Source of the DNA: an uncultured Gammaproteobacteria bacterium
GTDB taxonomy: Bacteria; Patescibacteriota; Microgenomatia; UBA10105; UBA927
DNA: 64,000 nucleotides
Assembly: GCA_964573695.1 (NCBI GenBank)
Contig: CAZNKB010000004.1
Coordinates: 78,214-142,213 of the forward strand
Direction of reading: 5' to 3'
In this document: piece by piece, positions 12,289-63,949 of the stretch
Layout of the letters: each line of letters starts with the position of its first letter
Numbering within the stretch: the stretch's first letter is position 1
Program-made: the position numbers and the translations under genes
Notes under the pieces: generated by a model
Databases searched by the model: none
Told to the model about the DNA's origin: nothing
What the model saw: only the letters and a program-made list of their open reading frames with translations

Positions 12289-13149
12289 TTAGAGCTCTTC
12301 GAGTTTGACGTGATCAGCGGGTTTGTCCTTGATAAACTCAAGATATTTTTCCGTTGTGGAGAGACGTTTGTGACCCACGAGTTTGCTTATGGTCGTAATT
12401 GGTGTGCCGCTCATAAGGTGATGAGCGATAAAGGTGTGTCGCAGATCGTTTACTTTTGCGTCCTCGATCCCCGCGACTTTAAAATACCGGTCTATGGCTG
12501 TTCGTATATTGCGAATAAGCAGTGGCCGTCCTGTTTTTGTAATAAACAGCGCTTGTGATTTGGCGGTTGTGCTTTTGATTTTGATCCAGTTGTCGAGCGC
12601 TTCCCGGCCTGCCCGATTTAGGGGGACCATACGTTCAATATGGCCTTCCTGAGCCGCAACATGAAGCTCGTTTTCCCGTACGTCGCCAACGGTGAGATTG
12701 GCAAGCTCTCCGATACGCAAGCCCGTTTGCAAAAAGAGTTCGACAATCGCGTAGGTTCGAAGATCTCCTCGACAGGCATCACGAAGTGCGCGGTATTCAA
12801 GTTTTGAAAGAATTCTTGGCGGTTTGACGTCGTATTTGGGATGTTCTATATCTCCGGCCGGATCAACAGCTATGACACCGGTCGTTTTGAGGAACCGGTA
12901 AAATGTTTTCATCGAATTGATTTTGCGTGAAATAGATTTTGGGGTGTAACTGTCTGCCGCGAGTTTTTTTAGGAATGCCTCAAGCTCTTCGCGGGAGACT
13001 GTCGATATGTCTTTTTTGCCGGCATTGGTCAAAAAGGCGACAAGCTGCTCAATATCTTTGCTGTATGCTACTATGGTAGCGTGAGCCCGACGTCGGGATT
13101 CAAGGTGTTCGACGAACTGTTTGTGGGCGGCTTTTAGGTCAAGTGTCAT
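12289..13149 (-). CDS. Tyrosine site-specific recombinase (XerC/XerD family)
   Basis: 286 aa; catalytic region LRHTFIAHHLMSGTPITTISKLVGHKRLSTTEKYLEF with terminal Tyr. Confidence 0.75.
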   Translation of the reverse strand: MTLDLKAAHKQFVEHLESRRRAHATIVAYSKDIEQLVAFLTNAGKKDISTVSREELEAFLKKLAADSYTPKSISRKINSMKTFYRFLKTTGVIAVDPAGDIEHPKYDVKPPRILSKLEYRALRDACRGDLRTYAIVELFLQTGLRIGELANLTVGDVRENELHVAAQEGHIERMVPLNRAGREALDNWIKIKSTTAKSQALFITKTGRPLLIRNIRTAIDRYFKVAGIEDAKVNDLRHTFIAHHLMSGTPITTISKLVGHKRLSTTEKYLEFIKDKPADHVKLEEL

Positions 13150-13265
13150 AGTGTGAAATCAGGAAACAGAAGCATGACTCAATTTTCGTTTAGAATTGAG
13201 GGACAGAGTATCGCTCCGTTTTCTTAAAGCCTATAATATCATATACTAGCCCAAAGCGCAACAGC

Positions 13266-34010: not shown

Positions 34011-35437
34011 CAGACATCATTGCAGATTTACAGATTCACTCAAGATTTTCCAGAGCTGTTTCGCCGCAGATGACCATACCAAATATTGCTATGTGGGCGA
34101 GGCGCAAGGGAATCGGATTGGTCGCGACCGGGGATTGGACGCATCCTATGTGGTTTCGAGAAATTGAGCGTGATTTGGAAGAGACGGGAAACGGGTTATT
34201 ACGGCTTAAACCGCAGGTTCAAAGCCCGTCGTCAACGGTAAGCGGTGAGCGTTTTGCTGCAAACGGTGGTTTTACAACTAACGACCCGTTATTTCTTCTT
34301 GCTACAGAGGTTTCCTGCATATACTCCCAAAACGGTAAGGGGAGAAGGGTACACACGCTCATCTGGGTGCCGTCTATTGAATCGGCGAGGAAAATTAGCC
34401 AGGAGATGACAAAACGAGGATGCAATTTATTAAGTGACGGGCGGCCGATTATCGGACTCACGTCAATAGATGTGGCAGAGTTAGTCCTCACGATAGAACC
34501 GAAGGCGCTTGTCATCCCGGCCCACGCGTGGACGCCTTGGTTTTCTGTATTTGGCTCGATGAGCGGGTTTACCAGTCTGGATGAAGCATTTGGGTCATAC
34601 GCCAAACATATTTATGCGGTTGAGACTGGTTTGTCGAGTAACCCTTCTATGAACTGGCAAATCGCTGAGTTGGATTCCCGGGCGATCGTGTCGTTTTCAG
34701 ATGCGCATTCGGGTCCGAAACTCGGGAGAGAGGCGACAGTATTTAAGCTTAAGGATGATAGAGACACGATAAGCTATCAGCATATTTATGAAGCGATTTC
34801 TGCGCGGAGTCTCAATAGTGATGAAAAAAAGTTACGGGCGACAATCGCCTACACGATAGAATTTTATCCGGAAGAAGGGAAATATCACTGGTCGGGACAT
34901 CGGGCATGTTCTATTCGTTGGGGGCCTGAGGAAACCCGAAAGAACGGCTCTACTTGTCCTGTATGCGGAAAACAATTAACCCAGGGGGTAGAACAGCGGG
35001 TGAGTGAGTTGTCCGGGCGATCCGAGACCGATGTACAGCTTTCAGTGTACGAGCACGCGATGAGTGAATCCTCAGCCGTGCAAATGACAAAAAGCAATGC
35101 ATTTTCGGATAGGCCGCCGTTTCTTATGATGGTGCCGCTTGTCGAAATTATCGCAGAGGCGATTGGATCTCCCGTGTCGAGTCCTAAAGTGCAAACGCCG
35201 TACTTTCGGTTGACCGACGAAGTAGGGAGTGAATTTTTCATATTACTTGAGGCGGATACGCGCGCCATAGCTGCTGTAGCCGGTGAGCGCGTTGCCCTTG
35301 GAGTAGACATGGTTCGAAAGGGGAAACTGACGATAGACCCGGGTTACGACGGCGTATTCGGTGTCGTAAAAATCTGGAATGCTGAAGGAAAAAGTATTGC
35401 TCAGGGTGACAAAGAACAACTCACCTTGTTGTCATGA
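34007..35437 (+). CDS. PHP-domain protein, EndoQ-like (TIGR00375-like) with C-terminal zinc-finger CxxC
   Basis: 476 aa; N-terminal IADLQIHSRFS PHP motif, CPVCGK zinc ribbon; overall length/architecture similar to endonuclease Q. Confidence 0.45.
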   Translation: MTDIIADLQIHSRFSRAVSPQMTIPNIAMWARRKGIGLVATGDWTHPMWFREIERDLEETGNGLLRLKPQVQSPSSTVSGERFAANGGFTTNDPLFLLATEVSCIYSQNGKGRRVHTLIWVPSIESARKISQEMTKRGCNLLSDGRPIIGLTSIDVAELVLTIEPKALVIPAHAWTPWFSVFGSMSGFTSLDEAFGSYAKHIYAVETGLSSNPSMNWQIAELDSRAIVSFSDAHSGPKLGREATVFKLKDDRDTISYQHIYEAISARSLNSDEKKLRATIAYTIEFYPEEGKYHWSGHRACSIRWGPEETRKNGSTCPVCGKQLTQGVEQRVSELSGRSETDVQLSVYEHAMSESSAVQMTKSNAFSDRPPFLMMVPLVEIIAEAIGSPVSSPKVQTPYFRLTDEVGSEFFILLEADTRAIAAVAGERVALGVDMVRKGKLTIDPGYDGVFGVVKIWNAEGKSIAQGDKEQLTLLS

Positions 35438-50191: not shown

Positions 50192-51511
50192 ATGGTTGCC
50201 ATAAATCCGTTTGAGTCAGCAATGAAGCAGTTGGATGCCGCACACGCGGTTTTGAAAAAATCCAAAAAATCACTCAAAAATTTAGATCAAAAAGTCGCTG
50301 TCCTGAGGCAACCTAAACGACAACTCAACGTCACTGTTCCGGTAGTTATGGATAGCGGAGAACAACAAATATTTCAGGGTTTCCGTATTCAGTATAACGA
50401 CGCGAGAGGCCCCTACAAAGGCGGAATTCGATATCACCACAATGTGTCGCTTGATGAGGTCAAGGCATTATCGTTTTGGATGGCCATGAAATGCGCGGTT
50501 GCCGATTTGCCGCTCGGTGGTGGAAAGGGCGGGATTATTGTTGACCCCAAAACGTTGTCGCCGGGAGAGTTGGAGCGGTTGAGCCGGGGATACGGGAAAG
50601 CCATTGCGGACGTTATAGGTCCGGATCTCGACGTTCCTGCTCCTGATGTAAATACAAACGGTGTCATTATGGGGTGGATGGTTGATGAGTTTCTGAAGGT
50701 ACAACGTCATAAGGCGAAAGCTTTCGGCAAAACGTTATCAAAAACCGACGAAATGAAGCTGAAGAGCACATTTACCGGAAAGGCGATCAAAGACGGCGGC
50801 AGTGAAGGGCGGGAAGAAGCGACCGGGCTTGGCGGGCTGTTCGTCCTTCAGGCCATTCTCAAAAAACTAAAGCTTACAGGGAAATTGACTGCCGCGGTTC
50901 AGGGGTTTGGCAATGTCGGTTATAACGTAGCAAAATTTCTTGATGAGGCTGGGATCACTGTCGTTGCAGTGTCTGACAGTAAGGGGGGAATATATGTGCC
51001 CGAAGGTATTAATCCAGCGTTAACGCTAGAATGCAAAAAGAAAAACGGATATTTAGCGGGATGCTATTGTTCCGGTTCCGTCTGTGATCTGAAAAAGGGT
51101 AAACAGGTGACGAACGAGGCGCTACTTGAATTGCCGGTCGATATTCTGGTGCCCGCAGCGCTGGAAAATGCATTGACTCGGGAAAATGCGCAGAGGGTAA
51201 AAGCGAAAGTTGTGCTTGAAATGGCCAATGGACCGACCACGCCGGAGGCAGACGCAATACTTTACAAAAAAGGAATCCCGGTCATTCCCGATATCCTGAG
51301 TAACAGCGGAGGGGTCAGCGTTTCTGCCTTTGAGTGGGAGCAAAATCTCAAAGGACAACATTGGACAAAGGCTCAAGTGAATGCGAAGTTAGCCAAAAAA
51401 ATGGCGTCAGCAGCCGGTGCCGTTTGGGATGCATCGGTTCTCTACAAAACAAACTTGCGTACGGCAGCATTCGTTGTCGCACTTGAACGGATTTTGACGG
51501 CGATGAAGTAA
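50192..51511 (+). CDS. gdhA: Glutamate dehydrogenase (Glu/Leu/Phe/Val dehydrogenase family)
   Basis: 439 aa; catalytic GGGKGG lysine-glycine loop; dinucleotide GFGNVG. Confidence 0.85.
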   Translation: MVAINPFESAMKQLDAAHAVLKKSKKSLKNLDQKVAVLRQPKRQLNVTVPVVMDSGEQQIFQGFRIQYNDARGPYKGGIRYHHNVSLDEVKALSFWMAMKCAVADLPLGGGKGGIIVDPKTLSPGELERLSRGYGKAIADVIGPDLDVPAPDVNTNGVIMGWMVDEFLKVQRHKAKAFGKTLSKTDEMKLKSTFTGKAIKDGGSEGREEATGLGGLFVLQAILKKLKLTGKLTAAVQGFGNVGYNVAKFLDEAGITVVAVSDSKGGIYVPEGINPALTLECKKKNGYLAGCYCSGSVCDLKKGKQVTNEALLELPVDILVPAALENALTRENAQRVKAKVVLEMANGPTTPEADAILYKKGIPVIPDILSNSGGVSVSAFEWEQNLKGQHWTKAQVNAKLAKKMASAAGAVWDASVLYKTNLRTAAFVVALERILTAMK

Positions 51512-51530: not shown

Positions 51531-51622
51531 TTGACAGGCGAGTGAGCGGCTGTTTACTATAAGGTATATCAGCACGCGCTGCCCCAAGCTTGTTGACAAC
51601 CAGACGGAAAGTCCGCTACAGT
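51531..51622 (+). promoter_or_regulatory. Two tandem sigma70-like promoters upstream of the uncharacterised gene array
   Basis: TTGACA(51531-36)-18-TACTAT and TTGACA(51593-98)-18-TACAGT. Confidence 0.35.
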
Positions 51623-51965
51623 GAAGCTTAGTATGAATACAAAACAAGCCAAGTTTGAAGACCGTCTTACCGACATTGTTGTTCAGATAGAGAAGTCCGG
51701 GTGGACTGACGAGGATAAAAACGCGCTGTATGCCAAAATCAGCGAGTATCTCCACAGCGTCGTATTGCCGGTGCTACTTAAGTTTACCCCAGTCGATGAA
51801 TTAAAGGACCTTGCAAATAACCCCGCAAAAGATACCGTTGACGCGTTCGTTGAGGTTATGAAAAAACCATTAAGCGATCCAAAAATGGCTCAAGAGCTTG
51901 ATGCGACGGTCCACAGTGTGCTTGATGATGTCGAAACTGCCTTATCCAAAGGAGGGATAACATGA
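51621..51965 (+). CDS. Small acidic helical protein, paralogue A of a 3-member family (unknown function)
   Basis: 114 aa; shares …(D/E)KxxLYAxISExLxxxxxPVLLKxxPxxEL…NPxK…T… with 52513 and 53495 ORFs; likely true start ATG 51633. Confidence 0.55.
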   Translation: MKLSMNTKQAKFEDRLTDIVVQIEKSGWTDEDKNALYAKISEYLHSVVLPVLLKFTPVDELKDLANNPAKDTVDAFVEVMKKPLSDPKMAQELDATVHSVLDDVETALSKGGIT

Positions 51966-52507
51966 GTGAACAATCCATGGGTGCAGAACTAGGGACACCG
52001 AGAGATCGTGCCATTGCCTATCTGGAACTCCGGCAGCACGGAACATACAAAGGCGGAGCGGAGAAAAACGTCAAGACAGGATTGATTCCCGACAAAGTAC
52101 GTCGTACCGAGCCGCTTGTAGATGCGGTGACTGCCTATGAGCAGGTGATTGACCGCATGGGACAGAAGGGGTTTGTCGGGTCACAGCAAGCATTGGAAAA
52201 TCTTCGTCCGCAGGCCTATGACGCGATGCGCGGTGTGCAATGGGGAGCGAGAGCCGCGGACTTTTTGTTGACCGCAGCTATCTGGTTGGGACCAACGAGA
52301 CGGGTTATTCGAGGATTACCGCTTAAAGCAGCCGCAACGTGGGCCATGATGAGATTCCGTCCTCTTGAATGGGCCGCAGCTACGGCGACAAAGATAGGCG
52401 GATCCGTTGCCACAACGGAAACAGTGGCGCCCGTTGTCAACAAAATTCTGCAAGGCGGAGAACGCGTTCCGAAAACGCCCGCCGTACCTAAACCCATGGC
52501 GGCCTAA
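51962..52507 (+). CDS. hypothetical protein with Ala/Trp-rich hydrophobic segment
   Basis: 181 aa; 4-nt overlap with upstream ORF; ADFLLTAAIWLGPTRRVIRGLPLKAAATWAMM. Confidence 0.45.
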   Translation: MSEQSMGAELGTPRDRAIAYLELRQHGTYKGGAEKNVKTGLIPDKVRRTEPLVDAVTAYEQVIDRMGQKGFVGSQQALENLRPQAYDAMRGVQWGARAADFLLTAAIWLGPTRRVIRGLPLKAAATWAMMRFRPLEWAAATATKIGGSVATTETVAPVVNKILQGGERVPKTPAVPKPMAA

Positions 52508-52512
52508 CTATC

Positions 52513-52821
52513 ATGGAAGAGAAACTTAAAGCGATCCTTGCCCGCATAGAAGCCTCAAACCTCGAAGAGCAGGATAAGGTAAAGCTCTATGCCGTCATCT
52601 CCGAGTCTCTCAAGGCGGCGATTTGGCCTACACTTCTTGCCAAAATGCCGAAAAACGAGCTGGAAATGCTTGTGAAAAACCCCGGGAAAGCAACTGCTGA
52701 ATCATACCTTCATCTGATCGAAGAAGCGACCAAAGACGAAAAGGTGCTGGATGACGTGAATGAAGTGCTTATGAATTTGGTAAATGAAATAGATGCGGCC
52801 CTTACGGAGGAAAAGATATGA
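52513..52821 (+). CDS. Small acidic helical protein, paralogue B
   Basis: 102 aa; MEEKLKAILARIEASNLEEQDKVKLYAVISESL…WPTLLAKMPKNELEMLVKNPGKATAESY. Confidence 0.55.
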   Translation: MEEKLKAILARIEASNLEEQDKVKLYAVISESLKAAIWPTLLAKMPKNELEMLVKNPGKATAESYLHLIEEATKDEKVLDDVNEVLMNLVNEIDAALTEEKI

Positions 52822-53432
52822 CCGAGCAAACAGGAGAATTGGCAGCCCCAGTCGAACGGGAGAGCGGTGTGGTAAAACGGATTGCCGAGAAGGCCGGCAA
52901 GTTTTTGTCGGAAAACTACACATTGAAGGGTGCCAAGGCGCGGGAACTGAGAGCGCTTGATGCGGTGGTAGGGAGCTTTACCCCGGAACAGCAAATGGAG
53001 ATGCGGGCACATTTTGAGGCTAAGGCGGAGAAGAATGCAAAATGGAAAGTGATCCGTAATTGGGTTGCGACTGGTGCTGGTATTGCCCTTGGCGGAGCAG
53101 TAGTAATAGCCGGACCCGACAAAGCTGCTGCGGCAGTCGTGTTGGCTGCAGGAAAAGTAGCTGAATGGTGGACGGTGACAGCCGCTCCGGCGCTTGCAAA
53201 AGCGGCAGCGCCAATAATTGCAGTGGGAGAAGCGGTCAAGACAGGGATACACAAGGCCTGGACTACGGTGTATAACTATGTTGACTATATGTTTGATATC
53301 AAACCGTTTGCGGTTGATATCCCATGGACCCAAATCAAAGACGGGGCGCCGAAGATCCCGCCATTCCCCGATTTACCACCGTTTAATCCGCCAAAGATAG
53401 AGATTCCCTGGCCGAAATTCGGGATTAAATAG
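52818..53432 (+). CDS. hypothetical protein with Gly/Ala-rich hydrophobic hairpin
   Basis: 204 aa; WVATGAGIALGGAVVIAGPDKAAAAVVLAAGKVAEWWTVTAAPALAKAAAPIIAVG; Pro-rich C-terminus. Confidence 0.45.
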   Translation: MTEQTGELAAPVERESGVVKRIAEKAGKFLSENYTLKGAKARELRALDAVVGSFTPEQQMEMRAHFEAKAEKNAKWKVIRNWVATGAGIALGGAVVIAGPDKAAAAVVLAAGKVAEWWTVTAAPALAKAAAPIIAVGEAVKTGIHKAWTTVYNYVDYMFDIKPFAVDIPWTQIKDGAPKIPPFPDLPPFNPPKIEIPWPKFGIK

Positions 53433-53494
53433 GTGAGGGGATATTGACTTGACGGTGTCCTGATGCCATAGTATTAATTAAGAAAAGGAGTCTT

Positions 53495-53818
53495 ATGGAA
53501 GATAAACTGAAAGCAATTGTGACGAGAATCGAACAAAGTAAATTATCCGAAGCAGAAAAGGCAGAGCTTTATACAACTATCTCTGAGGGACTGCAGGTGA
53601 CCGTGTGGCCGGTGTTACTTAAATACATGCCCAAAGAGCAACTTGATTATCTTGCTGCCGATCCTAAGGGGAGAGTGACTGTCGAAAGTTATGCGCAACT
53701 CATTACCGATACGATCAAAGACGGTGTGGCACTCAAGGAAATTGATGACCTGATGAATCAGGTGCTTGATGAGGTCGATAAAGCACTTTCTGAAGAGGGG
53801 ATCGATACAGTAAAATAA
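53495..53818 (+). CDS. Small acidic helical protein, paralogue C
   Basis: 107 aa; MEDKLKAIVTRIEQSKLSEAEKAELYTTISEGLQVTVWPVLLKYMPKEQL…. Confidence 0.55.
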   Translation: MEDKLKAIVTRIEQSKLSEAEKAELYTTISEGLQVTVWPVLLKYMPKEQLDYLAADPKGRVTVESYAQLITDTIKDGVALKEIDDLMNQVLDEVDKALSEEGIDTVK

Positions 53819-53849
53819 ATTAAGTTTTCTTGCCCAAAGAAGAAAGGAT

Positions 53850-54377
53850 ATGACTATGGCAGAAATAGGAATGTCAATGGAACCACCGAAAAAAGGATTT
53901 GTCGAAGGGCTTCGTCGTGCATTCACGGTTGGGGGAGCGAAAGAGAAGTGGTATCAGGATCACAAAGATCTGGTGCTTAAATACACAGATGTGCATAATG
54001 GCCTGAACGACGAACAGCGTGCACAGGTGATGCAGCAGATAGAAAACGACGCGACTAAGTCGGCAAAGATCGCCGTTGGGAAGCATGTGGGTGCAGCCGT
54101 TCTCACAACTGCAGTTCTGGGATTTGGTGGAGGACTTGTGGGGAGTGAGCGGTTCCGAAATTTTGTAGCAAAAGGCAAATTGTTTAATTGGGAGTTTGGA
54201 AAAGGACTTGCAACACTAGGGGAGAAAGGGGCTGGTCATTTGGGTGATGCAAAAAAATGGCTGGACAAGGTAATTGATGGGCCAAAGCAGTGGGTGTATA
54301 AAAAAATACTTCCTGATTCTGCGCTTACCGGCGCGTTTGATGCAGGGGCTACTGTGGCTAGCGCAGTAAAGAAATAA
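53850..54377 (+). CDS. hypothetical protein with Gly-rich hydrophobic segment
   Basis: 175 aa; VGAAVLTTAVLGFGGGLVG. Confidence 0.45.
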   Translation: MTMAEIGMSMEPPKKGFVEGLRRAFTVGGAKEKWYQDHKDLVLKYTDVHNGLNDEQRAQVMQQIENDATKSAKIAVGKHVGAAVLTTAVLGFGGGLVGSERFRNFVAKGKLFNWEFGKGLATLGEKGAGHLGDAKKWLDKVIDGPKQWVYKKILPDSALTGAFDAGATVASAVKK

Positions 54378-54473
54378 AGCAAACGTTATCCCTCTTTTAG
54401 CGATCTCATATGGCTAGGGCATAGGTATTTTTGTGTTGCAATTCACGTTTGTATATGTTCTACTAATAGTAGA

Positions 54474-55235
54474 ATGTCTATGTCAGAAATACCCAAGGGT
54501 AATCCTCAATTTGTGGGCCAAGCAGATGCGAGTAAATTGCAGGCCGAAGCTCCCATAAAAGCCGAATTTACTATTTCCCCGGAACAGCAAAAGGTAGCCG
54601 ACGTTATGAAAGAGAGTGGTGATAAGCTTGCTGACTCCGTCATTGAGGCGCGGGCACGGGCAGCCGGTAAACTTCAGTCGTTGCGTGGTAAAGAACTCGT
54701 TGATGCGGGATTGAAGCAAATGGGAAGAGGAGCCTGGGAAACATTCAAGTCGGAACTCAAATGGGGGATACCAATGTACATATTAGGCACGGTTGGTGGA
54801 GCGACAGCAGGATATGCAGGTGTAAGAGGATTACGCACAGAAGAAGGGCGCCAGTCTCTAGCAAATAGTTTATCCAGTCTCTCGGATGAGCCAGTACCGC
54901 TTATGTCTGCGGAGGAAGCACGTTCTGCACAGCAATTCGCGACAGGTCTTGGTGCAACCATAGGGGGAACTATTGGTAAGGATGTAGGTGTGTTGTTGGG
55001 ATACGAAACCGCTGGGCTCAAATATAACAAGAAAATTGCGGTCAAGGAAAACTTACCGTCCACGAAATTTGTTGACTGGGTAGTTGGTAATGCTGCAAAT
55101 GTCGGGATACGGACGCTTCTTAAAGGGCGTTTCGGCTTTGTAGGTCAGCTTGTGGTAAATGAGGTTACAAATCCGATAACAATCGGGGGACTCCGCAATG
55201 TGGCGACCGGCATGTGGCAGATGAGAAAGGGATAA
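54474..55235 (+). CDS. hypothetical protein with Gly-rich hydrophobic segments
   Basis: 253 aa; IPMYILGTVGGATAGYAGV and GLGATIGGTIGKDVGVLLGYETAG. Confidence 0.45.
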   Translation: MSMSEIPKGNPQFVGQADASKLQAEAPIKAEFTISPEQQKVADVMKESGDKLADSVIEARARAAGKLQSLRGKELVDAGLKQMGRGAWETFKSELKWGIPMYILGTVGGATAGYAGVRGLRTEEGRQSLANSLSSLSDEPVPLMSAEEARSAQQFATGLGATIGGTIGKDVGVLLGYETAGLKYNKKIAVKENLPSTKFVDWVVGNAANVGIRTLLKGRFGFVGQLVVNEVTNPITIGGLRNVATGMWQMRKG

Positions 55236-55236
55236 T

Positions 55237-55521
55237 ATGCAGGCACTGAAACACAAAATACAGCATACAACTCTATTTTCTGATGACGATAAGATCGCTA
55301 TCCTTGCTGCAGTCGATACGTACACTGCGGAAGATGTAAAGGCGCTGGAGGGCATCATCGATGAGTTTGATGAGAAGCACCAGGAGGCTATTTCCGAGTA
55401 CAAAAAATCCGTGTACGGAGTACTCGATACGATCGTTGCAAAAGCGAACCCGTCAGACAAAAAACGCTTCCAAAATGCTGCAGCTGATGTCCGGAGCGGT
55501 TTAGACGCACTTCTACAATAA
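55237..55521 (+). CDS. small acidic helical protein (possibly distant relative of the 3-member family)
   Basis: 94 aa; 4-nt overlap (ATGA-type) with upstream ORF. Confidence 0.4.
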   Translation: MQALKHKIQHTTLFSDDDKIAILAAVDTYTAEDVKALEGIIDEFDEKHQEAISEYKKSVYGVLDTIVAKANPSDKKRFQNAAADVRSGLDALLQ

Positions 55522-55560
55522 AGTTTTTCCTCCTTCAGTTGTGTTTGCTATAATCGGAAT

Positions 55561-57726
55561 ATGACCGAGTACCCTCCGAAGCCCAAGCGTACTATAGAGG
55601 CGCCCACAAAGGAAATTCCCCGCGTAGACCCGAGCCCGCTTCAAGAATCCGCAAAGTTAGTAGGGGCTATAGATGCGAAAGATAAGCAGGGAATCGAGCA
55701 GCACTCAAGCGCATTGGTGGATGAAGTAAGAAAGGATTTTGCCCGTCAGAACGTACCACTTACTCCAAGCGAAACATCATCTCTGGGAAAAAAAGTGAAA
55801 GACTCTTTGAATAACGCCGGAAAGCGGACATCTGAAATGGTGTTTTCTAAAGAGATGCAGAAGGACTTGGCAGAGTATAGGAGTATCGTAACAGATATAG
55901 AGAAAACGTATAAATTTTCCTCAATAGCCCCTGAATTCTATAAGGCGGCAGATAAAATACGTACAAACACAGTGTTGGAAACATTAAGTATTTTTGGTAT
56001 TCAGCACGCATCTAACCCGGGACATGTCGAGCGTGCAGCGATAGAGGTGGCCAGATTTAGTGAAGCAAAGGGCGTAGGGGCAAAGCTCAAACACGCCATG
56101 TCTATCGGAAGGGAAGCACTGCCGTATGTCTACATACTTGGGCTTATACCGCCGCTCATTAACAGTAAGAACATCAGTAAACAATTTGAAGAAAGCACCA
56201 TGAAATTGCGATCAGCTATTAACACCCGGGTAGCACAGTCCGTTTTTATGAGGGATTTTGAGTTTATCCATGACAAGCCAGCCTCAGAAATCATGAATAT
56301 CGTCGATAAAGGCAAACAGGGTACCGTTGATCTTATGAGACTCACGTACAAGCAAATGTTGCCAAAGATTGCAGCTCTTGGTGCAATTACGACTACGGAA
56401 TTTCTTATTGCTCCTCCCGCGGGTATCTTGGGACTTATTCGGATACCGTTCTTGGCTAAACACGGGGAACAAACTGCCAGAAAAATTCTTTCTGAGCGCG
56501 CAGAGAATTTAAAGAGGAAGGATTTGATAGATGCTCGTGTGATGTCGTCGCTTCAGAGTCTCGAGGTGGTTCGGACGACAGATAGCATGGTGAATGCCAT
56601 GGAAGAGCTGCAAAGTAATATGTCCAAAAGCGACGAAGTGGATATTGCGGCGGATTCCTCAAGAAGTGAACGCGACATAAAGGAATCCTACTATGGTTTG
56701 GGGTATACCTATGGCATACCCATTGTAGCCGCCGGGTGGGAAGCGTTGATGAATTTAAATGCACTGAAAGGAAAAGATACGTCGTTTGATGCCGGCCAAG
56801 CGTCGCTCAATGTTATGCTCGCAGGAACCAGTACGTTAGCTTTGGAGGGTATTAACGGTGCGATGATGGAAGAGCTTGTACATGAATACACGGATAAAGT
56901 GCAGCCCGCACTTCAGGATATCCGTCGCATGAATGAGCTGTTGGGGCCGTATGATCAGGTCGATACGCCGGAGGGCCCACGGGAACAGGCGCGGATGCCG
57001 GCCGAAGCGTTGGGTAACTTTGATATTTCCATAAAAAATTTGAATTTCAAAAATATTTTACATAACGTGTCCATGGATATACCCCAAGGGTCGTTTGTGA
57101 CTATCAAGGGGCAGTCGGGAATAGGGAAGACGACCTTTTTACGTCATATGCTTGGGTTGTTTGGTGCAGAAGAGGGCAAGGTGTCATACGGCGGAACGGA
57201 TCTCGGGAGTATCAAAAAGTACGGAGAACACTCGATTTATTCTCAGCTTGCGTATGCCAATCAGAACCCTCAATATTTCGAAAACATGAGCCTTAGGGAA
57301 AACCTATTGCTTTGGACCAAAAAGCAGGTTGACACGGAAAAATTAACAACGGTACTACACGATCTCCACCTGGATCATATCGCAGACCGTATGGACAGCA
57401 ATGTGAAGCATTTTTCCGGTGGGGAACTCCGCAGAATCGGGATTGCCCGGGCGCTCCTTAAAGATCCGAAGGTGCTCTTCCTTGACGAGCCAACCGCAAA
57501 TTTAGACGAAGCTTCGGCAAAACAGGTGCTCGATATCATTAAACAGATGCGAAAGACGAGACCGGATATGACTGTGGTTGCCGTGACCCATGATCCGAAT
57601 TTCGAAGCGATCGCGGAAAAGATCGTTGATTTTGCCGAGGTGAATAAGCCTAACGATACGAAAGCCGAGTCACTCGGGAACCGGCAGGTGTTTTATGCGT
57701 CGAGTGCTTCTCCCTCGAAGAATTAG
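55561..57726 (+). CDS. ABC-type ATPase fused to ~480-aa N-terminal exporter-TMD-like but weakly hydrophobic domain; paralogue 1 of 3
   Basis: 721 aa; Walker A GQSGIGKTT, signature FSGGELRRIGIARALL, Walker B VLFLDEPTANLDE, H-loop AVTHD; N-domain motifs FMRDFEFIHDKPASEIMNIVDKGK and QPALQDIRRMNELLGPYD. Confidence 0.7.
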   Translation: MTEYPPKPKRTIEAPTKEIPRVDPSPLQESAKLVGAIDAKDKQGIEQHSSALVDEVRKDFARQNVPLTPSETSSLGKKVKDSLNNAGKRTSEMVFSKEMQKDLAEYRSIVTDIEKTYKFSSIAPEFYKAADKIRTNTVLETLSIFGIQHASNPGHVERAAIEVARFSEAKGVGAKLKHAMSIGREALPYVYILGLIPPLINSKNISKQFEESTMKLRSAINTRVAQSVFMRDFEFIHDKPASEIMNIVDKGKQGTVDLMRLTYKQMLPKIAALGAITTTEFLIAPPAGILGLIRIPFLAKHGEQTARKILSERAENLKRKDLIDARVMSSLQSLEVVRTTDSMVNAMEELQSNMSKSDEVDIAADSSRSERDIKESYYGLGYTYGIPIVAAGWEALMNLNALKGKDTSFDAGQASLNVMLAGTSTLALEGINGAMMEELVHEYTDKVQPALQDIRRMNELLGPYDQVDTPEGPREQARMPAEALGNFDISIKNLNFKNILHNVSMDIPQGSFVTIKGQSGIGKTTFLRHMLGLFGAEEGKVSYGGTDLGSIKKYGEHSIYSQLAYANQNPQYFENMSLRENLLLWTKKQVDTEKLTTVLHDLHLDHIADRMDSNVKHFSGGELRRIGIARALLKDPKVLFLDEPTANLDEASAKQVLDIIKQMRKTRPDMTVVAVTHDPNFEAIAEKIVDFAEVNKPNDTKAESLGNRQVFYASSASPSKN

Positions 57727-57750
57727 TACGTTTGGGTTACAATACCGTGC

Positions 57751-59682
57751 ATGGTTAACGTAGAGCGTCAAAAAGCGCCAATTTCTTTTGCTCCAGAGCT
57801 TTCTACAAGAGGATCGGATGAAAAACTTCCTGCAATATCCCTCAAGGAATATCAGGATACGTTTTTGTCCCTCTACACGCTCTATGGATTAGATAAACAT
57901 GCCGCAAAACTCGGATTGCTAGAAGGGACCATGATGACGCGTTCCGTTATGGGACAGCTCATGGGGCCATTTATTAACAAGCAGTTCCGCACTATATTCG
58001 TCGGGTCGTCACCTACAGGTGAGTTGAGCGAGGGTTTAGCGCGGCCAAATGATAAACAAGCGTTCCTTGCCGCTGCAAAAAAACTAGCATTCATTGTAGG
58101 TGGCGCTATGGCCGGGAATTTGTCGGTAAAGTTATTGGACGGGGTGGCCAGGAAAGCATACGAGGAAGAGTCGTTGTTTTTCCGAAAAGCGATAAATGAC
58201 CGTATCGCGCAGTCCATATTCATGCGTGACCTTGAGTTCGTGCAGAATAAGACTCCCGCAGAGATACTCAACATCATAGATAAAGGGAAGCGGGGGATAA
58301 TGACTGTCATTGATGAGACTATTACGGAAGTCGTACCTCACTTGACGGCAATCGTGGCCGCAAGTGCCGCCGGATTTACGGTGGACAAGAAAGTGGGAGG
58401 GTTGGGGCTCCTCCGTCTGCCGTTTCTGTATGCCACGAATAAGAAGGTGATAGAGCAGATGCTTGTGGACAGAAAGAAAGAGCTGGCGCAAAAGGACGCG
58501 ATAGACGCGCGTGTGATGTCATCGCTTCAGAGCGTAGAGTTGGTGAAGTCCTCCGATACTATGGAGCATGCAATCGGCGAATTGGGCAACACGATGCATG
58601 AACAGGATGCCATGATTATCAAATCCAAGCAAAAACGCGTTGCCAGAAGTCAGCAGGAGGCGTACCTTGATACATTGTTTGAAGATATATTGCCTATGGC
58701 GCTCGGGTACGCGGAATATAATGACTTGGTACAATCCGACCATAACCCTTTCGCTTCCGCGACCGTAGCCCTTCAGCACTACAGAACAATAGCGGGTGAA
58801 CAGCGCAGCATAGGCTGGCATGCATCCGCGTTAATGTCATCTCTCTCAGAGAGGATCCAGCCGGCGATTCAAGATATCAAAAGAATGGATGAGTTGCTTG
58901 GTCCGTATGATATGCTGGATAAGCCGGACGGGTTGTTGGAACAAGCAAGAAATCCTGTTTCCCAACTCCGTAACTTTGATATTCAGGTGCGGAATTTACA
59001 ATACAAAAATATACTCCACAACGTATCCCTTCATATACCTGAGGGGTCGTTCGTGACCATTCGAGGGCCTTCGGGTATCGGAAAAACAACACTTCTTCGT
59101 CATATGTTGGGATTGTTTGGGGCGGCGCATGGGGTCGTAACTTACGGAGATCAAGATTTGGGGAGTATAAAAAAATACGGTGAGCATTCTATCTATTCCA
59201 AGTTAGCATATGCGAATCAGGCGCCGTTGTATTTTGAAAATATGTCACTTCGGGATAACCTTCAGTTGTGGACGACGAATCACGTGTCCGACGAAACTTT
59301 ATTCCAGGTGTTGCACGATTTGAAACTCGATCATATCGCAGGTCGACTTGATAGCAAGGTAAAGCATTTTTCCGGTGGGGAACTCCGGAGAATTGGAATT
59401 GCCCGGGCGCTCCTCAAGAATCCGCAGGTGCTTTTTTTGGATGAGCCGACCGCAAATTTAGATGAAGGATCATTACAGCAGGTGTTGCAGATCATAAAAG
59501 ACATGCGTAAAAACAGGCCGGATATGACGGTTATTGCGATAACCCATGATCCGCATTTTGAAGCGATCGCGGAAAAGATTGTGGATTTTGCCGAGGTGAA
59601 TAAGCCAAACGACATGAGCGCGGAGACACTCGGGAATCGGAGCGTATTTTATGGGCCACCGCCCACAGGAAAGAATACATAG
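57751..59682 (+). CDS. ABC-type ATPase fusion protein, paralogue 2
   Basis: 643 aa; GPSGIGKTT, FSGGELRRIGIARALL, VLFLDEPTANLDE; N-domain FMRDLEFVQNKTPAEILNIIDKGK, DARVMSSLQSVELVKSSD, QPAIQDIKRMDELLGPYD. Confidence 0.7.
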   Translation: MVNVERQKAPISFAPELSTRGSDEKLPAISLKEYQDTFLSLYTLYGLDKHAAKLGLLEGTMMTRSVMGQLMGPFINKQFRTIFVGSSPTGELSEGLARPNDKQAFLAAAKKLAFIVGGAMAGNLSVKLLDGVARKAYEEESLFFRKAINDRIAQSIFMRDLEFVQNKTPAEILNIIDKGKRGIMTVIDETITEVVPHLTAIVAASAAGFTVDKKVGGLGLLRLPFLYATNKKVIEQMLVDRKKELAQKDAIDARVMSSLQSVELVKSSDTMEHAIGELGNTMHEQDAMIIKSKQKRVARSQQEAYLDTLFEDILPMALGYAEYNDLVQSDHNPFASATVALQHYRTIAGEQRSIGWHASALMSSLSERIQPAIQDIKRMDELLGPYDMLDKPDGLLEQARNPVSQLRNFDIQVRNLQYKNILHNVSLHIPEGSFVTIRGPSGIGKTTLLRHMLGLFGAAHGVVTYGDQDLGSIKKYGEHSIYSKLAYANQAPLYFENMSLRDNLQLWTTNHVSDETLFQVLHDLKLDHIAGRLDSKVKHFSGGELRRIGIARALLKNPQVLFLDEPTANLDEGSLQQVLQIIKDMRKNRPDMTVIAITHDPHFEAIAEKIVDFAEVNKPNDMSAETLGNRSVFYGPPPTGKNT

Positions 59683-59692
59683 CGCGTATTGA

Positions 59693-60502
59693 GTGGTATA
59701 CTATAGGTATATGAGCGAGAAACCACCAATGGGCGATATGCGCCCCAAACCAAAAGATATTCTCTTGCCGCCTGATAAGGCCAAAGAGATAAGTGACATT
59801 ATCCCCAAACCGGAGAATCAATTCCACTATAAAATTACCGGGGAATGGCAGCAGAATCGAGAGGTCTATCGGGTCATGGAGGGTAATAAAGTGATCAGCG
59901 ACTACTCATTCCCGGAAAAAAGTAACATGAGTAAGGTGCAGTTTGCCACCCGCAAGACGTATTCCAAAGAAGTGAATTTATTGGGAGCTTGGACGGATCA
60001 GCCCGTGCAATTTGACCGCAAAACCGGAACGTGGAAAAAGCTCAATATCCTTGAGCGCGTGAAGCAGACGTTTTCCAAAGAAGTGAATATCCCGGCGCAA
60101 GTGGTCATGGAAGTGGCTGGTGGTAAAGAGGTGCCGATCCTTCACACGCTTGAGCAGAAGCGCCCGGTAGGAGAGACGGTTGTCGAGGCTAAAGTAAATA
60201 CACTTTCCGAGGCGCAGGTTGACTTGGGTCTTAAGTATAAGCACGTGGATCACAAGATTTCAGAGCTTGAAGAGACTAATCGGGTGCTCAAAACTGAAGC
60301 AGCGACAAGTGCTGCCTTGATCGCGTCACTTCGCCAGCAAGTCGTTATCGCTAACCGAAAAGTTTCCGAATTATCGGCACAACTTCGTGTGGCGCAAATG
60401 AAGGCGCAGGATGCGGCTAATCAGGCAAACCCACATCATGAAGGGCCAATCTACTCCAAGCCGGACCCTGCGGATGTTGTCGAGGGTGAAGTCATAGGAT
60501 AA
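59693..60502 (+). CDS. hypothetical protein with internal short repeat and C-terminal coiled coil
   Basis: 269 aa; repeated (Y/F)SKEVN(L/I) motif; heptad-rich C-terminus ELEETNRVLKTEAATSAALIASLRQQVVIANRKVSELSAQLRVAQMKAQ. Confidence 0.4.
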   Translation: MVYYRYMSEKPPMGDMRPKPKDILLPPDKAKEISDIIPKPENQFHYKITGEWQQNREVYRVMEGNKVISDYSFPEKSNMSKVQFATRKTYSKEVNLLGAWTDQPVQFDRKTGTWKKLNILERVKQTFSKEVNIPAQVVMEVAGGKEVPILHTLEQKRPVGETVVEAKVNTLSEAQVDLGLKYKHVDHKISELEETNRVLKTEAATSAALIASLRQQVVIANRKVSELSAQLRVAQMKAQDAANQANPHHEGPIYSKPDPADVVEGEVIG

Positions 60503-60521
60503 TACTGTACAATAAGGGGAT

Positions 60522-62759
60522 ATGACGGCTGAACGACCGCTCAAACCACCCGTTCCGAAGGAGCCACACGTTACAACAGACGTGAGCTCTATAGTTACCC
60601 CAAAGGCAGTTGAGAGTACCACACCAGTTATAGAGCGTGTCGCAGAGGGTAAGCCGCCCGAATCCAAAGATTTGACCGCTATGGTAGAACAGGTTGCCAA
60701 GGACTTGCGTGAGCAGGGCATACCGGTTTCCTCGGATGATATACGCGCTGTCCAAAAGTTAGTAGAGCGGGGGTCATACCCGGCATCTTCTTCGGAGTCC
60801 CCAAAACCAGGACAAAAAAAGCCTGTTGAAACAGGACCGCTACCGGAAATCGATCTCAATGAGTATAAAACGGTAGTAGACGATTTGGTCCGGAACTACG
60901 GCGTAGATAAGCAGGCGTGGGGCAAGATCAGCCATATCATCGGCATTACCACACTGGTCGGGGATTTCCTGGGAGGCATGCAGCGGAAAATGTTTGCTAC
61001 GAAAGAGGGCCGGAAATATGTTTATCGCCGGTTCGGTGCAATCGGGCATGAATTGGGGCTCAAGAAATTCACGCCGAAAGAATTTTTCCAGAGTTTGCCG
61101 GTTATGAAAAAAGAAAAAGCGGCAAAAATGGGCAAGTGGTTACTGGAAAGTTCATGGCCGTTCCTCGCCAGTCCCGTGTATTGGTTGTTAGAGCGACAGG
61201 CAGGGAAAATTGCGGGGAAGATGTTTATGGCTGAGCGCACCAATCTGCAAGAACAGGTGAACAATCGGATAGCGGATTCGCTATTTATGCGGAATTTCGA
61301 ATTCCTCAATAACACGCCGTCGGGAGAAATGTTGGAGATTATTAATCGCGGTAAAGATGCCACTCTGGATCTCATGAGTGCGGTGCATGAGGAGCTTATC
61401 CCGCTCAAATACGCGACGGCGGGATCAATCGGGAAGCAGTGGCTGATTAATCCGGTAGATGCCGGAGCAGCGTTGTTCAAAAAAATGATGCTGGAAACCC
61501 GCGTGAAGCCAAATGCGCAACGTATACAAAAGCAGAATGATGAGGCCCTCAAACACTGGGATACCGTCAATACCAAGCTCCTGACGACTTTACAGGGTTT
61601 AGAAACGGTACGGACAACAGGTAATGCAGAAGCCGGATCGGATGTCCTCTATCAGGCGTTGGCGGATAGGGATTTCGTGGAATCGGGCGGCATGCGGGAG
61701 AAGCGTCAGCAGGATCGGACGATGAATAAGCTATTTGATCTTTTGGACATAAGTGTGCCGTTGACGACCGAGGGGTTGAAGTTGTGGCAAGAGATCAGGG
61801 GGGGAGTGAGCGAAACAGGGAAGCCGTATATGGCTGACGATATGTTTAATAGTTTGGCTGACGCGTATTTTCGGGTAACCGGTTCCAAGGGGGAGCAGCA
61901 GGATTTGCGTCAGATGACACTTCAGAAAACACATTTATATGTGAATCGTATCATCCCTGATATTCAGGATATCAAGCGCATGGAAGATCTACTGGGTCCG
62001 TACGATCTTCTTGATCATCCGCTTGGACTTCGGGAGACAGCCAGAAAGCCGGTGTCGGATATCAGCAGGTTTGACATCAAGGTGGAAAATTTGCGGTTTA
62101 AACATATCCTTCATGGGGTAAATTTGGATATCCCCCAGGGATCGTTCGTCACGATTAAGGGTCCGTCAGGAATAGGGAAGAGTACGCTATTTCGGCATCT
62201 TGTGGGGCTCTACCCGGGAGATTCCGGGTCGGTAAAATATGGTGATGTCGATATCGACGGCATCAAAAAATACGGTGAGCAGTCCATATTCACCAAAATC
62301 GCGTATGCCAACCAAAATCCCCAGTACTTTGAGGATATGACGCTCCGGGAAAACCTCCTCTTGTGGACGTCAAAAGATATTCCCAATGAGCGCATCGAGT
62401 CGGTGTTAAAGGATTTGAAATTGGATGCTATCGTTGATCGGCTGGATACGAAAACCAAACATTTTTCCGGAGGCGAAATGCGCCGCATCGGCATCGCCCG
62501 GGCGTTACTCAAGGATCCCAAGGTGCTGTATCTTGATGAGCCTACGGCAAACCTGGATGCTGCCTCCACGCTGCAGGTGATGAAGATTATTCAGGAACTC
62601 CGTAAATCACGACCGGATATGACCGTGGTTGCCATTACCCATGACCCGGTATTCGAGCGGATTGCTGAACACGTGGTAGATTTTGCCGATATCAACAAAA
62701 AATCCGAATCTGTCGCTCTCGGTGACGGCCAGGTATTAGAAGCGATCGCGAAGCCCTAA
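60522..62759 (+). CDS. ABC-type ATPase fusion protein, paralogue 3
   Basis: 745 aa; GPSGIGKST, FSGGEMRRIGIARALL, VLYLDEPTANLDA; N-domain FMRNFEFLNNTPSGEMLEIINRGK, QGLETVRTTGNA, IPDIQDIKRMEDLLGPYD. Confidence 0.7.
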   Translation: MTAERPLKPPVPKEPHVTTDVSSIVTPKAVESTTPVIERVAEGKPPESKDLTAMVEQVAKDLREQGIPVSSDDIRAVQKLVERGSYPASSSESPKPGQKKPVETGPLPEIDLNEYKTVVDDLVRNYGVDKQAWGKISHIIGITTLVGDFLGGMQRKMFATKEGRKYVYRRFGAIGHELGLKKFTPKEFFQSLPVMKKEKAAKMGKWLLESSWPFLASPVYWLLERQAGKIAGKMFMAERTNLQEQVNNRIADSLFMRNFEFLNNTPSGEMLEIINRGKDATLDLMSAVHEELIPLKYATAGSIGKQWLINPVDAGAALFKKMMLETRVKPNAQRIQKQNDEALKHWDTVNTKLLTTLQGLETVRTTGNAEAGSDVLYQALADRDFVESGGMREKRQQDRTMNKLFDLLDISVPLTTEGLKLWQEIRGGVSETGKPYMADDMFNSLADAYFRVTGSKGEQQDLRQMTLQKTHLYVNRIIPDIQDIKRMEDLLGPYDLLDHPLGLRETARKPVSDISRFDIKVENLRFKHILHGVNLDIPQGSFVTIKGPSGIGKSTLFRHLVGLYPGDSGSVKYGDVDIDGIKKYGEQSIFTKIAYANQNPQYFEDMTLRENLLLWTSKDIPNERIESVLKDLKLDAIVDRLDTKTKHFSGGEMRRIGIARALLKDPKVLYLDEPTANLDAASTLQVMKIIQELRKSRPDMTVVAITHDPVFERIAEHVVDFADINKKSESVALGDGQVLEAIAKP

Positions 62760-62794
62760 GGCTTGTCAAATATGAGAAAAATCCTCATACTGGA

Positions 62795-62947
62795 GATATG
62801 CCAGGTAGTAGAATTTCGATACGCTTTCGTTTCATTGCGCGTCGACTAGGCTCTCTGGAGATATGAATTAGTTTTTAATAAACAAAGGAGATTGAAATTC
62901 CGTCAGCGTAAAACGCAATGGTCGAAATTTCACTACCTGGTATGGAC
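62795..62947. repeat. Copy B of the ~150 bp TIR-bounded repeated element
   Basis: Ends CCAGGTAGTAGAATTTCGAT (62801-62820) and GTCGAAATTTCACTACCTGG (62921-62940); ~45 nt 5' and ~35 nt 3' segments closely match copy A at 4641-4790. Confidence 0.6.
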
Positions 62948-63949
62948 GAGACACCGGAAATTCCACAAAAAGAACAGATCGTAAGTTCTCCTGAACTTGA
63001 CGACCGAATTAGACAAGCTCAGACAGAGATATTGGCTCAAGGGAAAAACCCGGAAGCCGTTGCCGGACGTAATATCGCAGAGATGAGTTTCTTGAAGGCG
63101 CTAGGGGAAACCATTAAACCGCATGCGAAAAGGTTACGGGAAATTAACTTCAAACAATTTAAAGCGCAGGGTGCCGCAGTCCTTAGTCTTATTCCTATCA
63201 TCGGAGAAGGGAAGGCGTTTTTGAGCACGGTGGGAGTAGTGAAGGGATACGAGAAAGCGACAAGCGTCTACAAAGCAGAAAAGGGGTGGCGGAAAGTCAA
63301 AGCGATAGGGGCCGGATTTGGCCGCGCCATGGCGGAAAATGCGCCGACTGCCGCCAAAGCCGGGTCGTTTTTTGAAAAAGTACGCGCCGGCAATGTCGTT
63401 GGGAAAGTTGAAGCTGAAGCGGCACTCAGGGCTGAACATATAGCTGCCAATATCGCGCACGGAACCTACGAGAGCAGTAGGGAAGCGAGTAAGGCGCTCA
63501 AGGCCGGACTAAAGTATAACAAAGAAGTCACGAAGCAGGCGCTCAAAGCAGGCCTGGATGAAGCTGCGGATGCAGCAGGAAAAACAGGTGTAGCAAGGTG
63601 GGCGTTTAAGGAAATCGAAAAGCGGAAAATACCGACAATCAAAATTTTGGCAAACCCGGAAAAGCGTGCGGCGATCGGTGCGTTTTTGGACCTTACGCCG
63701 GACGTTCCGGGCTGGCTATCGCTTACGACTGCAGTGGGCGAAATGGTGGGCATACACGGTATAGACGTGATACCCGCTGCGTTACAAATGGGCAAAAACA
63801 CGATTGATACCGCCGTGACGTACGGTAAGCTGACGAGTGATGTGCTAAATCTTGCGATAGACCGGGTGACCGGCAGGGGTAAAGGAGTAGCAAAGGCAGC
63901 ACAATTGTTTTCGTCGTATTCGGCGAGCCCAGGTTTGCAAGGAGCATGA
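62918..63949 (+). CDS. hypothetical Lys/Ala-rich protein (true start more likely ATG 62942, downstream of the repeat)
   Basis: 343 aa; first 8 codons lie inside repeat copy B; helical, KA-rich, Gly-rich hydrophobic segment near C-terminus. Confidence 0.4.
   Translation: MVEISLPGMDETPEIPQKEQIVSSPELDDRIRQAQTEILAQGKNPEAVAGRNIAEMSFLKALGETIKPHAKRLREINFKQFKAQGAAVLSLIPIIGEGKAFLSTVGVVKGYEKATSVYKAEKGWRKVKAIGAGFGRAMAENAPTAAKAGSFFEKVRAGNVVGKVEAEAALRAEHIAANIAHGTYESSREASKALKAGLKYNKEVTKQALKAGLDEAADAAGKTGVARWAFKEIEKRKIPTIKILANPEKRAAIGAFLDLTPDVPGWLSLTTAVGEMVGIHGIDVIPAALQMGKNTIDTAVTYGKLTSDVLNLAIDRVTGRGKGVAKAAQLFSSYSASPGLQGA

Follow-up and report, generated by a model that had tools for sequence, protein, structure and literature searches.

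We analysed a 64,000-nt stretch of DNA (hereafter the window), which from position 51531 to 63949 holds an array of genes on one strand. The array was found to be lineage-specific, occurring in a subclade of Candidatus Gottesmanbacteria (Patescibacteria, or candidate phyla radiation, CPR), and to hold about seven translationally coupled pairs of genes for a small acidic and a large basic protein. Its engine consists of ATP-binding cassette (ABC) ATPases that are recognisably of type IV (ABCB-like) exporter half-transporter descent. Probably, the array encodes a hitherto undescribed machine for protein delivery or assembly. Tentatively, and with more doubt than confidence, we favour the reading that the paired proteins are adaptors or chaperones with their cargo, passed on to an atypical ABC ATPase that would deliver the cargo to the cell envelope. 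The CPR bacteria, whose genomes are tiny, make up a considerable part of bacterial diversity, and the ways in which they build their envelopes and contact their hosts are little understood.

Architecture and conservation of the array

Thirteen open reading frames (ORFs; g01 to g13, Table 1) were found on the + strand between 51621 and 63949, directly 3' of gdhA (50192-51511), as an earlier note on this DNA had claimed. The same note had given their spacing as 0-40 nt and had proposed a single operon. The spacing holds roughly, but the intergenic distances range from -4 to +158 nt, with larger gaps of 62, 96 and 158 nt and with two ATGA overlaps of -4 nt, at g01/g02 and g03/g04. The single operon was not supported: the gaps contain promoter-like sites, and the array is interrupted by toxin-antitoxin modules in one relative. 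A promoter and terminator scan showed no enrichment over shuffles and is thus silent on a single operon either way. The window edge cuts the array after g13, and relatives carry approximately 8 kb more, with further pairs of large and small proteins; the whole array measures at least 20 kb, and the window holds its first 12.4 kb (the 5' half).

Scans of all 13 proteins against Pfam, NCBIfam, PADLOC and PHROGs matched only the generic nucleotide-binding domain (NBD) of ABC proteins, which agrees with the earlier view that nothing but the ABC modules has a canonical function; the remaining library matches (for example, PorA, HAUS4 and Avs1b) were sub-threshold noise.

The N-terminal 490 residues of g09 had only 24 matches in 5.8 billion proteins, and the named ones were from Patescibacteria or Candidatus Gottesmanbacteria. 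An exhaustive HMMER search with the N-domains of the three window ABC proteins against 1.84 billion representatives revealed only 75 proteins (E <= 1e-3), and a scan of 185,579 species, with one genome each, revealed 14 loci, all in metagenome-assembled genomes (MAGs) of Gottesmanbacteria/Patescibacteria. We called and clustered the ORFs of 20 loci plus the window. The order common to most loci was trxA-trxB-FNR-gdhA, two to three pairs of s3 with a B-type family, B13 with s2, one to three ABC genes, L5 with s2, L1 with s10, L4 with s2, and two further L1 genes. The exact family set differed in the most divergent loci (L001/L012/L013 type), and the ABC copy number varied from one to three within this otherwise fixed frame. 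In array-bearing loci, the array always lay 3' of the redox genes trxA-trxB-FNR-gdhA. Orthologues in more than one related genome were found for 12 of the 13 ORFs; g11 had one in the closest relative (L007) only. The order is thus kept as a block across Gottesmanbacteria-like genomes, which is the conservation on which the earlier proposal had been staked. The array takes up approximately 2% of a genome of approximately 1-1.3 Mb, and its retention in order in most of the related genomes that we examined argues for an important function. We found no description of it in the literature on Gottesmanbacteria, episymbionts, and chaperones or secretion systems of Patescibacteria.

Evolutionary rates were compared using five relatives that keep the housekeeping genes. 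The identity of gdhA and trxB was 73-86%. The small protein g05 was 84-94% identical in the four nearer relatives and 59% identical in L016, and the identity of the ABC proteins dropped to 38-46% in more distant relatives. The large basic proteins showed 26-60% identity or were undetectable beyond the closest relative, and such fast divergence is as expected for exposed or exported clients.

Several observations were made on individual relatives. In the distant relative L001 (GCA_030679255.1, JAUXTO010000022.1, positions 1339-9538 and 12514-13265), the array is interrupted by several toxin-antitoxin modules, with related array families kept; the insertions comprise MazE/PIN, Phd/PIN, AbiEii and HepT/MNT modules and an AAA_14/DUF4143 gene. 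Four array-bearing MAGs (L007, CAYSAP010000010.1; L011, CAYHFH010000022.1; L013, CAZLDC010000033.1; L020, CAZHOQ010000013.1) are titled "uncultured Gammaproteobacteria bacterium". This title is probably wrong, since L007 and L020, whose flanks are readable, match Gottesmanbacteria in gene content and synteny.

Small acidic and large basic proteins are encoded as coupled pairs

The earlier note had described paralogy at two levels, among three small acidic proteins and among three ABC proteins, and blastp confirmed both. The small proteins g01, g03 and g05 showed pairwise identities of 30-46% (E 1e-16 to 3e-30), and a fourth small acidic protein, g08, comes from a family distantly related to theirs. 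Those in the window have isoelectric points (pI) of 4.5-5.0; across the loci, the small proteins have 85-118 residues and a pI of 4-6. The families s2 and s10 are related (hhalign E 2e-7), and s3 matched s2 weakly over 25 N-terminal columns (hhalign E 6e-4), where one motif, h-x-x-I-x-x-S-x-L-[LS]-x-x-[EQ]-K-x-x-L-[YL], is visible in both alignments and is common to the small families. That they have one N-terminal motif in common points to a docking partner shared by the small proteins, and not solely to binding that is specific to individual toxins. The s3 family had 59 database members, all with E < 1e-21, none with a Pfam domain and with no tail of weak matches. No match of g01, g03, g05 or g08 to families of the FliS, CesT, WXG100 or DUF3130 type was found in Pfam at E <= 0.1, and the s3 and s2/s10 profiles found nothing significant among the PDB sequences (best E 0.012).

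The large proteins g02, g04, g06, g07 and g13 contain 24-25% Gly+Ala and have a pI of 9.3-10.1; across the loci, the large basic proteins have 165-390 residues and contain segments that are weakly amphipathic or hydrophobic. Hydrophobicity was assessed as the Kyte-Doolittle mean over a 19-residue window (KD19). Proteins of this type had been called Gly/Ala-rich and hydrophobic, and the composition was borne out, but the hydrophobicity only in part: hairpin-like, moderately hydrophobic segments were present only in g04 and g06 (KD19 1.5-1.7), weak ones in g07 and g13, and none in g02. The families B15, F7 and f17 are related to each other (hhalign E approximately 1e-7), and no relationship among L1, L4 and L5 was found by hhalign. 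By eye, the C-termini of L1, L4, L5 and B13 share a short motif, NP(x)T/V...h..IP.VG or PDVPG...G..G (g07, residues approximately 228-245; g13, approximately 250-285; L003, 15779-20204). Since hhalign does not link these families, the motif may have arisen by convergence, as a signal or for an interaction.

Nearly all large array proteins, including the ABC proteins, start with M-[STADN]-E, often with a Pro within approximately 10 residues. This start was seen in g02, g04, g06, g07, g09, g11, g12 and g13 and in their orthologues in L001-L020. It was present in 112 of 163 large array proteins, a count that includes non-independent orthologues from approximately 11 families, compared with 6 of 97 other proteins of the same loci and none of 69 small proteins. 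It may reflect a signal, N-terminal processing or translation context. The large proteins have no Sec-type signal sequence, and their N-termini are of the acidic MxE type instead.

The distances within pairs were measured across the related genomes. From s3, the distance was -4 nt to B19 in four of five cases and to f17 in all five. L5 and s2 were also -4 nt apart in 6 of 12 cases, B13 and s2 were separated by +1 nt in four of seven, and L1 and s10 by -8 to +1 nt in 6 of 10 (full range, -47 to +10). In pairs that lie upstream of the ABC genes, the gene for the small protein leads, B13/s2 being the exception, and in pairs downstream of them it follows.

ABC ATPases combine an exporter-like fold with a hydrophilic helical domain

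The three ABC proteins g09, g10 and g12 showed pairwise identities of 38-56% over approximately 500-700 residues (blastp, E <= 1e-139), and all belong to the ABC ATPase superfamily (PF00005, E 1e-28 to 3e-31). The motifs GxSGxGK[ST], [FYL]SGGE, hhhhDEP and [VI]THD were intact in g09, g10 and nearly all of the 40 family members scanned. In g09 and g10, the signature reads FSGGE, and the Walker A motif, the Walker B glutamate and the H-loop are intact. The Walker B motif of g12 reads LYLDEP and falls outside the search pattern, although DEP, FSGGE and ITHD are present in its sequence.

An AlphaFold2 (AF2) model of g09, built from 24 sequences, had a mean predicted local distance difference test score (pLDDT) of 67.5. 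It revealed an N-terminal helical extension and long helices at 196-230, 241-283, 285-337, 343-397 and 411-461, followed by the NBD. Foldseek aligned approximately 600 columns of this model to CmABCB1, TmrAB, Atm1, CydDC, MsbA, PCAT1 and HlyB (E approximately 1e-13), and the six-long-helix type IV exporter fold coupled to an NBD was recognised. The proteins had been labelled ABC fusions; their layout is instead the ordinary order of helical domain and NBD of exporter half-transporters, although the helical domain is hydrophilic. The sequences agree with the fold, though only marginally: Pfam ABC_membrane was the most frequent family for the isolated N-domains (3 of 10, best E 3e-4) and was also recorded weakly for two distant relatives. 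The profile of the N-domain revealed nothing significant among the PDB sequences, with the ABCB6 transmembrane region as the best match (E 0.1).

Ahead of the exporter-like domain, the ABC proteins carry an N-terminal extension of 110-200 residues; hhalign of this extension against every partner family revealed no relationship (best, s3 at 7.6% probability). A family-specific linker, LGPYDxxDxPxGxxE, precedes the NBD. The ABC protein of the "MTAERP" N-terminus type, as in g12, was present in most of the related arrays examined and is the sole ABC protein of the single-ABC genomes.

The helical domain does not have the six hydrophobic membrane-spanning segments of an integral permease in g09, g10 or g12. 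The grand average of hydropathy (GRAVY) of the region before the NBD was -0.36, -0.15 and -0.48 in g09, g10 and g12, respectively, compared with +0.38 in E. coli MsbA and +0.53 in E. coli CydC. The number of segments with KD19 >= 1.6 was one, zero and zero, compared with five in each E. coli protein, and Asp, Glu, Lys and Arg made up 25%, 26% and 26% of the 300 residues before the NBD, compared with 17% in MsbA and 13% in CydC. The same hydrophilic pattern was found in all 34 distinct family members of the loci and in the distant tier (approximately 55 representatives). The ABC protein of the single-ABC genomes has a maximum KD19 of only 1.15-1.38, and a single hydrophobic hairpin remains in the g09-type paralogues (KD19 1.79). 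Hydrophilicity is not a trait of the organism, since CopA and FtsH, encoded in the same window, show ordinary transmembrane segments (KD19 1.75-2.56). In the N-terminal region, the invariant residues are concentrated immediately behind the second long helix (N221...K252) and in the linker that leads into the NBD, and the helix tips vary. This pattern suggests that ATP-driven conformational coupling, along with the conserved surfaces that couple to the NBD, was kept and membrane embedding was lost.

More distant hydrophilic ABCB-like ATPases of approximately 770-790 residues were observed in L021, L022 and L023 (P0106, P0104 and P0112) and in L002 (P0009) as single genes without pairs, adjoining housekeeping genes on other contigs of CPR-like character. 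The members of the distant tier that could be placed are likewise lone genes. The family of these ATPases thus extends beyond the array.

Proposed function of the array

In the reading that we favour, the small proteins would be dedicated adaptors or chaperones that keep an aggregation-prone, amphipathic partner soluble, and they would present this partner to the ABC ATPase by docking via the common N-terminal motif. The ATP cycle of an ABC dimer would drive release of the putative cargo into or across the envelope, with the most hydrophobic hairpin proteins (g04/g06 type) possibly forming the membrane part. The process would yield a lineage-specific structure of the membrane or surface. The earlier note had proposed a transport or assembly machine with paired partner proteins. 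The pairing was strengthened, being coupled in many genomes and amounting to about seven pairs rather than three, but we infer transport or assembly, along with the chaperone and cargo roles, the direction in which cargo would be delivered and the place where it would end up.

Several results weigh against this reading. Its chief weakness is that the helical domain is too hydrophilic for a conventional membrane conduit, so that a simple membrane transport machine is doubtful and room is left for a purely cytoplasmic one. No obvious membrane channel gene was found in the array, in which the weak g04/g06 hairpins are the only candidates. The M-x-E start is common to the ABC proteins too and thus cannot simply be a cargo signal. 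The AF2 model of g13 (family L5, 16 homologues) had a pLDDT of 43.8 and no confident fold. Lastly, the lone ABC proteins without pairs suggest that the ATPase has, or had, a client-independent function.

A further proposal, which we consider possible but somewhat unlikely, is that the ABC proteins are water-soluble or peripheral descendants of exporters. What was once a transmembrane cavity would then be a cytoplasmic, ATP-driven clamp that takes amphipathic clients from the dedicated small adaptors and injects or assembles them into the envelope. If true, this would be a delivery principle outside the numbered secretion systems, possibly serving episymbiotic CPR bacteria in building a surface for host contact.

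A cytoplasmic machine not concerned with export is an unlikely alternative. Here, the ABC proteins would be soluble remodelling or assembly ATPases, the pairs would form a scaffold inside the cell or at the periphery of the membrane, for instance an amphipathic coat or filament, and the small proteins would be assembly inhibitors or chaperones. The hydrophilicity of the region before the NBD across the family, including genomes whose only ABC protein lacks a hydrophobic segment, agrees with this explanation, as do the missing signal peptides of the large proteins, the AF2 prediction of the L5 client as all-helical and flexible, and the housekeeping contexts of the lone homologues. It fits less well with the fast divergence of the large proteins, which is more typical of exposed proteins, or with the g09-type hairpin and the hairpin-like segments of g04 and g06. 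We are also not aware of any soluble protein with the type IV ABC exporter fold.

It is improbable, in our view, that the basic, Gly/Ala-rich proteins are toxins or bacteriocins that act on membranes, with their small acidic partners conferring immunity and with ABC proteins dedicated to their export. Rather than being hypervariable, most of the 14 genome loci keep the same families in the same order, neither a C39 peptidase nor a toxin domain was matched, and the g05-type small protein is conserved like housekeeping genes in the nearer relatives. The single motif of the small proteins, which points to one docking partner, the hydrophilic helical domain of the ABC proteins and the cost of the array to so small a genome also speak against toxins. 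The features that recall such cassettes are the adjoining, tightly coupled basic/acidic pairs, the Gly/Ala-rich hairpins reminiscent of pore-forming peptides, the fast evolution of the large proteins, the similarity to bacteriocin exporters at the level of the NBD, and the toxin-antitoxin modules inserted in one relative.

We give very little weight to ordinary small-molecule ABC exporters (CydDC-like thiol/heme or multidrug) beside unrelated hypothetical genes, with the "system" being backbone synteny: CydD and CydC are the best NCBIfam matches, the array always follows the redox genes and P0009 is a lone ABC protein in another context, but the CydD/CydC scores lie far under their cut-offs, the helical domain lacks membrane-spanning hydrophobicity, the ABC genes of array-bearing loci are flanked by pair families of one repertoire, and their copy number varies within a fixed frame.

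Features of the window

The coordinates of the array genes and of the repeated element ahead of g13 are listed in Table 1.

Table 1. Genes of the array and the repeated element, with their positions in the window
Feature	Coordinates	Strand	Description
g01	51621..51965	+	Small acidic, 114 aa, pI 4.8, family s3; paralogue of g03 and g05; ATGA overlap with g02, kept in relatives
g02	51962..52507	+	Basic Gly/Ala-rich, 181 aa, pI 10.1, family B19; partner of g01; N-terminus MSEQSMG; no family match
g03	52513..52821	+	Small acidic, 102 aa, pI 4.7, family s3
g04	52818..53432	+	Basic Gly/Ala-rich, 204 aa, family f17 (related to B15, F7); partner of g03; hairpin 82-137 (KD19 1.4-1.56), Pro-rich C-terminus
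g05	53495..53818	+	Small acidic, 107 aa, pI 4.5, family s3; most conserved array member
g06	53850..54377	+	Basic Gly/Ala-rich, 175 aa, family B15; partner of g05; hydrophobic segment 74-98 (KD19 1.54-1.72)
g07	54474..55235	+	Basic Gly/Ala-rich, 253 aa, family B13; small partner g08 starts 1 nt later
g08	55237..55521	+	Small acidic, 94 aa, pI 5.0, family s2 (related to s10; N-terminal motif in common with s3)
g09	55561..57726	+	ABC ATPase, 721 aa; N-terminal extension, type-IV-exporter-like helical domain with one hydrophobic hairpin, intact NBD
g10	57751..59682	+	ABC ATPase paralogue, 643 aa; shorter N-terminal extension; weak Pfam ABC_membrane match, residues 145-267
g11	59693..60502	+	269 aa; only here and in closest relative L007; outside the conserved core
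g12	60522..62759	+	ABC ATPase, 745 aa, "MTAERP" N-terminus type; region before NBD without a segment of KD19 >1.1
Repeated element	62796..62944	+	Approximately 149 nt, closing inverted repeat of approximately 24 bp, ends at conserved ATG of g13; second copy 4642-4786
g13	62942..63949	+	Basic Gly/Ala-rich, 335 aa from conserved Met, family L5; first downstream large+small pair; small partner beyond window edge

The conserved start of g13 is Met9 (62942), not 62918 as first read. The last gene had been said to follow a copy of a repeat seen at 4.64 kb, and the two copies indeed match at 94% (62796-62827 and 4642-4673) and 89% (62906-62933 and 4749-4776). They are approximately 145-149 nt long, and each is closed by an inverted repeat of approximately 24 bp, the stems of which differ by one compensatory change (CCAGG/CCUGG and CCGGG/CCCGG). 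Both copies fold better than shuffles (RNA z -3.9 and -3.7). The conserved start codon of g13 marks the exact end of the 62.8-kb copy, and the 4.64-kb copy ends at an ATG at 4784, as read from the sequence. At the position of g13, the element was found only in the closest relative (L007); it is thus probably young, either MITE-like (a miniature inverted-repeat transposable element) or a recently spread leader, and is not part of the conserved system.

The GC content and skew of the array are those of the rest of the window, so the array is not a foreign island. A phage or defence island was ruled out by the absence of PHROGs and PADLOC signals, by the conserved chromosomal synteny and by the lack of a GC shift. 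A gene-calling artefact was ruled out by the orthologues described above. The rest of the window encodes housekeeping proteins, including aminoacyl-tRNA synthetases, FtsH, an ATP-dependent DNA ligase, CopA and trxB. An uncharacterised DUF4012 protein of 821 residues (55-2520) and an uncharacterised 476-residue ORF without a Pfam match (34007-35437) were also observed.

Comparison with known systems

The searches with hidden Markov models, profiles and folds assigned the set to no described system, in line with the earlier statement that it matches no known layout. The closest relatives of the engine are the type IV ABC exporter half-transporters (MsbA, BmrCD/EfrCD, TmrAB, CydDC, McjD, HlyB and PCAT1). 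The array proteins share with them a helical domain followed by a catalytically complete C-terminal NBD, and one to three paralogues per array would fit homo- or heterodimers. They differ in that the helical domain is hydrophilic (25-26% charged residues and zero or one hydrophobic segment, compared with five transmembrane peaks in MsbA and CydC) and only marginal to Pfam ABC_membrane (best E 3e-4), and in that they carry the extra N-terminal extension of 110-200 residues and the LGPYDxxDxPxGxxE linker. The array proteins do not qualify as CydDC thiol/heme exporters, as the best NCBIfam matches, TIGR02857 and TIGR02868, scored only 124-136 bits against cut-offs of 435 and 329, and these alignments extend over no more than the NBD and the linker ahead of it.

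Type I secretion systems (T1SS) and peptidase-containing ABC transporters (PCAT/ComA) also place an ATPase of the ABC exporter family beside putative substrates without signal peptides. No Pfam or NCBIfam match to HlyD, TolC or RTX was found in the array proteins or in the called array genes of related loci. In g09, g10 and g12, no match to Peptidase_C39 or a C39-like domain, as in PCAT/ComA/SunT, was found, with no systematic scan for double-glycine leaders made; the scores for the bacteriocin exporters TIGR01193 and TIGR03796 were 97-98 bits against cut-offs of 524 and 853. PCAT substrates are short, whereas the array neighbours have 165-390 residues. To our knowledge, a small partner of its own for each substrate is not a feature of T1SS or PCAT. 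For polymorphic toxin-immunity cassettes, no toxin or immunity family was matched in Pfam, NCBIfam or PADLOC, and the variability of such cassettes was not seen, as most of the 14 genome loci share one order of families.

In layout only, the array is most like the chaperone-substrate pairs of type III secretion systems (T3SS) and flagella (FliS-FliC, class I chaperones) and the partner pairs of type VII secretion systems (T7SS; WXG100, Lap-LXG). In these systems, too, a gene for an acidic partner of approximately 100 residues is coupled to a larger one, and several pairs are clustered around an export ATPase. The ATPase of the array is of the ABC class, and neither a T3SS gate (FlhA/SctV) nor an EssC ATPase of the FtsK/SpoIIIE type was found among the genes read in the array and its relatives. 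A naturally hydrophilic ABC exporter fold bears on exporter evolution and on the limits of this fold, and clients that reach the surface, if they do, would be candidate host-interaction proteins. An arrangement of one putative adaptor per client around an ABC ATPase would place in the CPR a layout that is known elsewhere only in type III and type VII secretion, where it serves other classes of ATPase.

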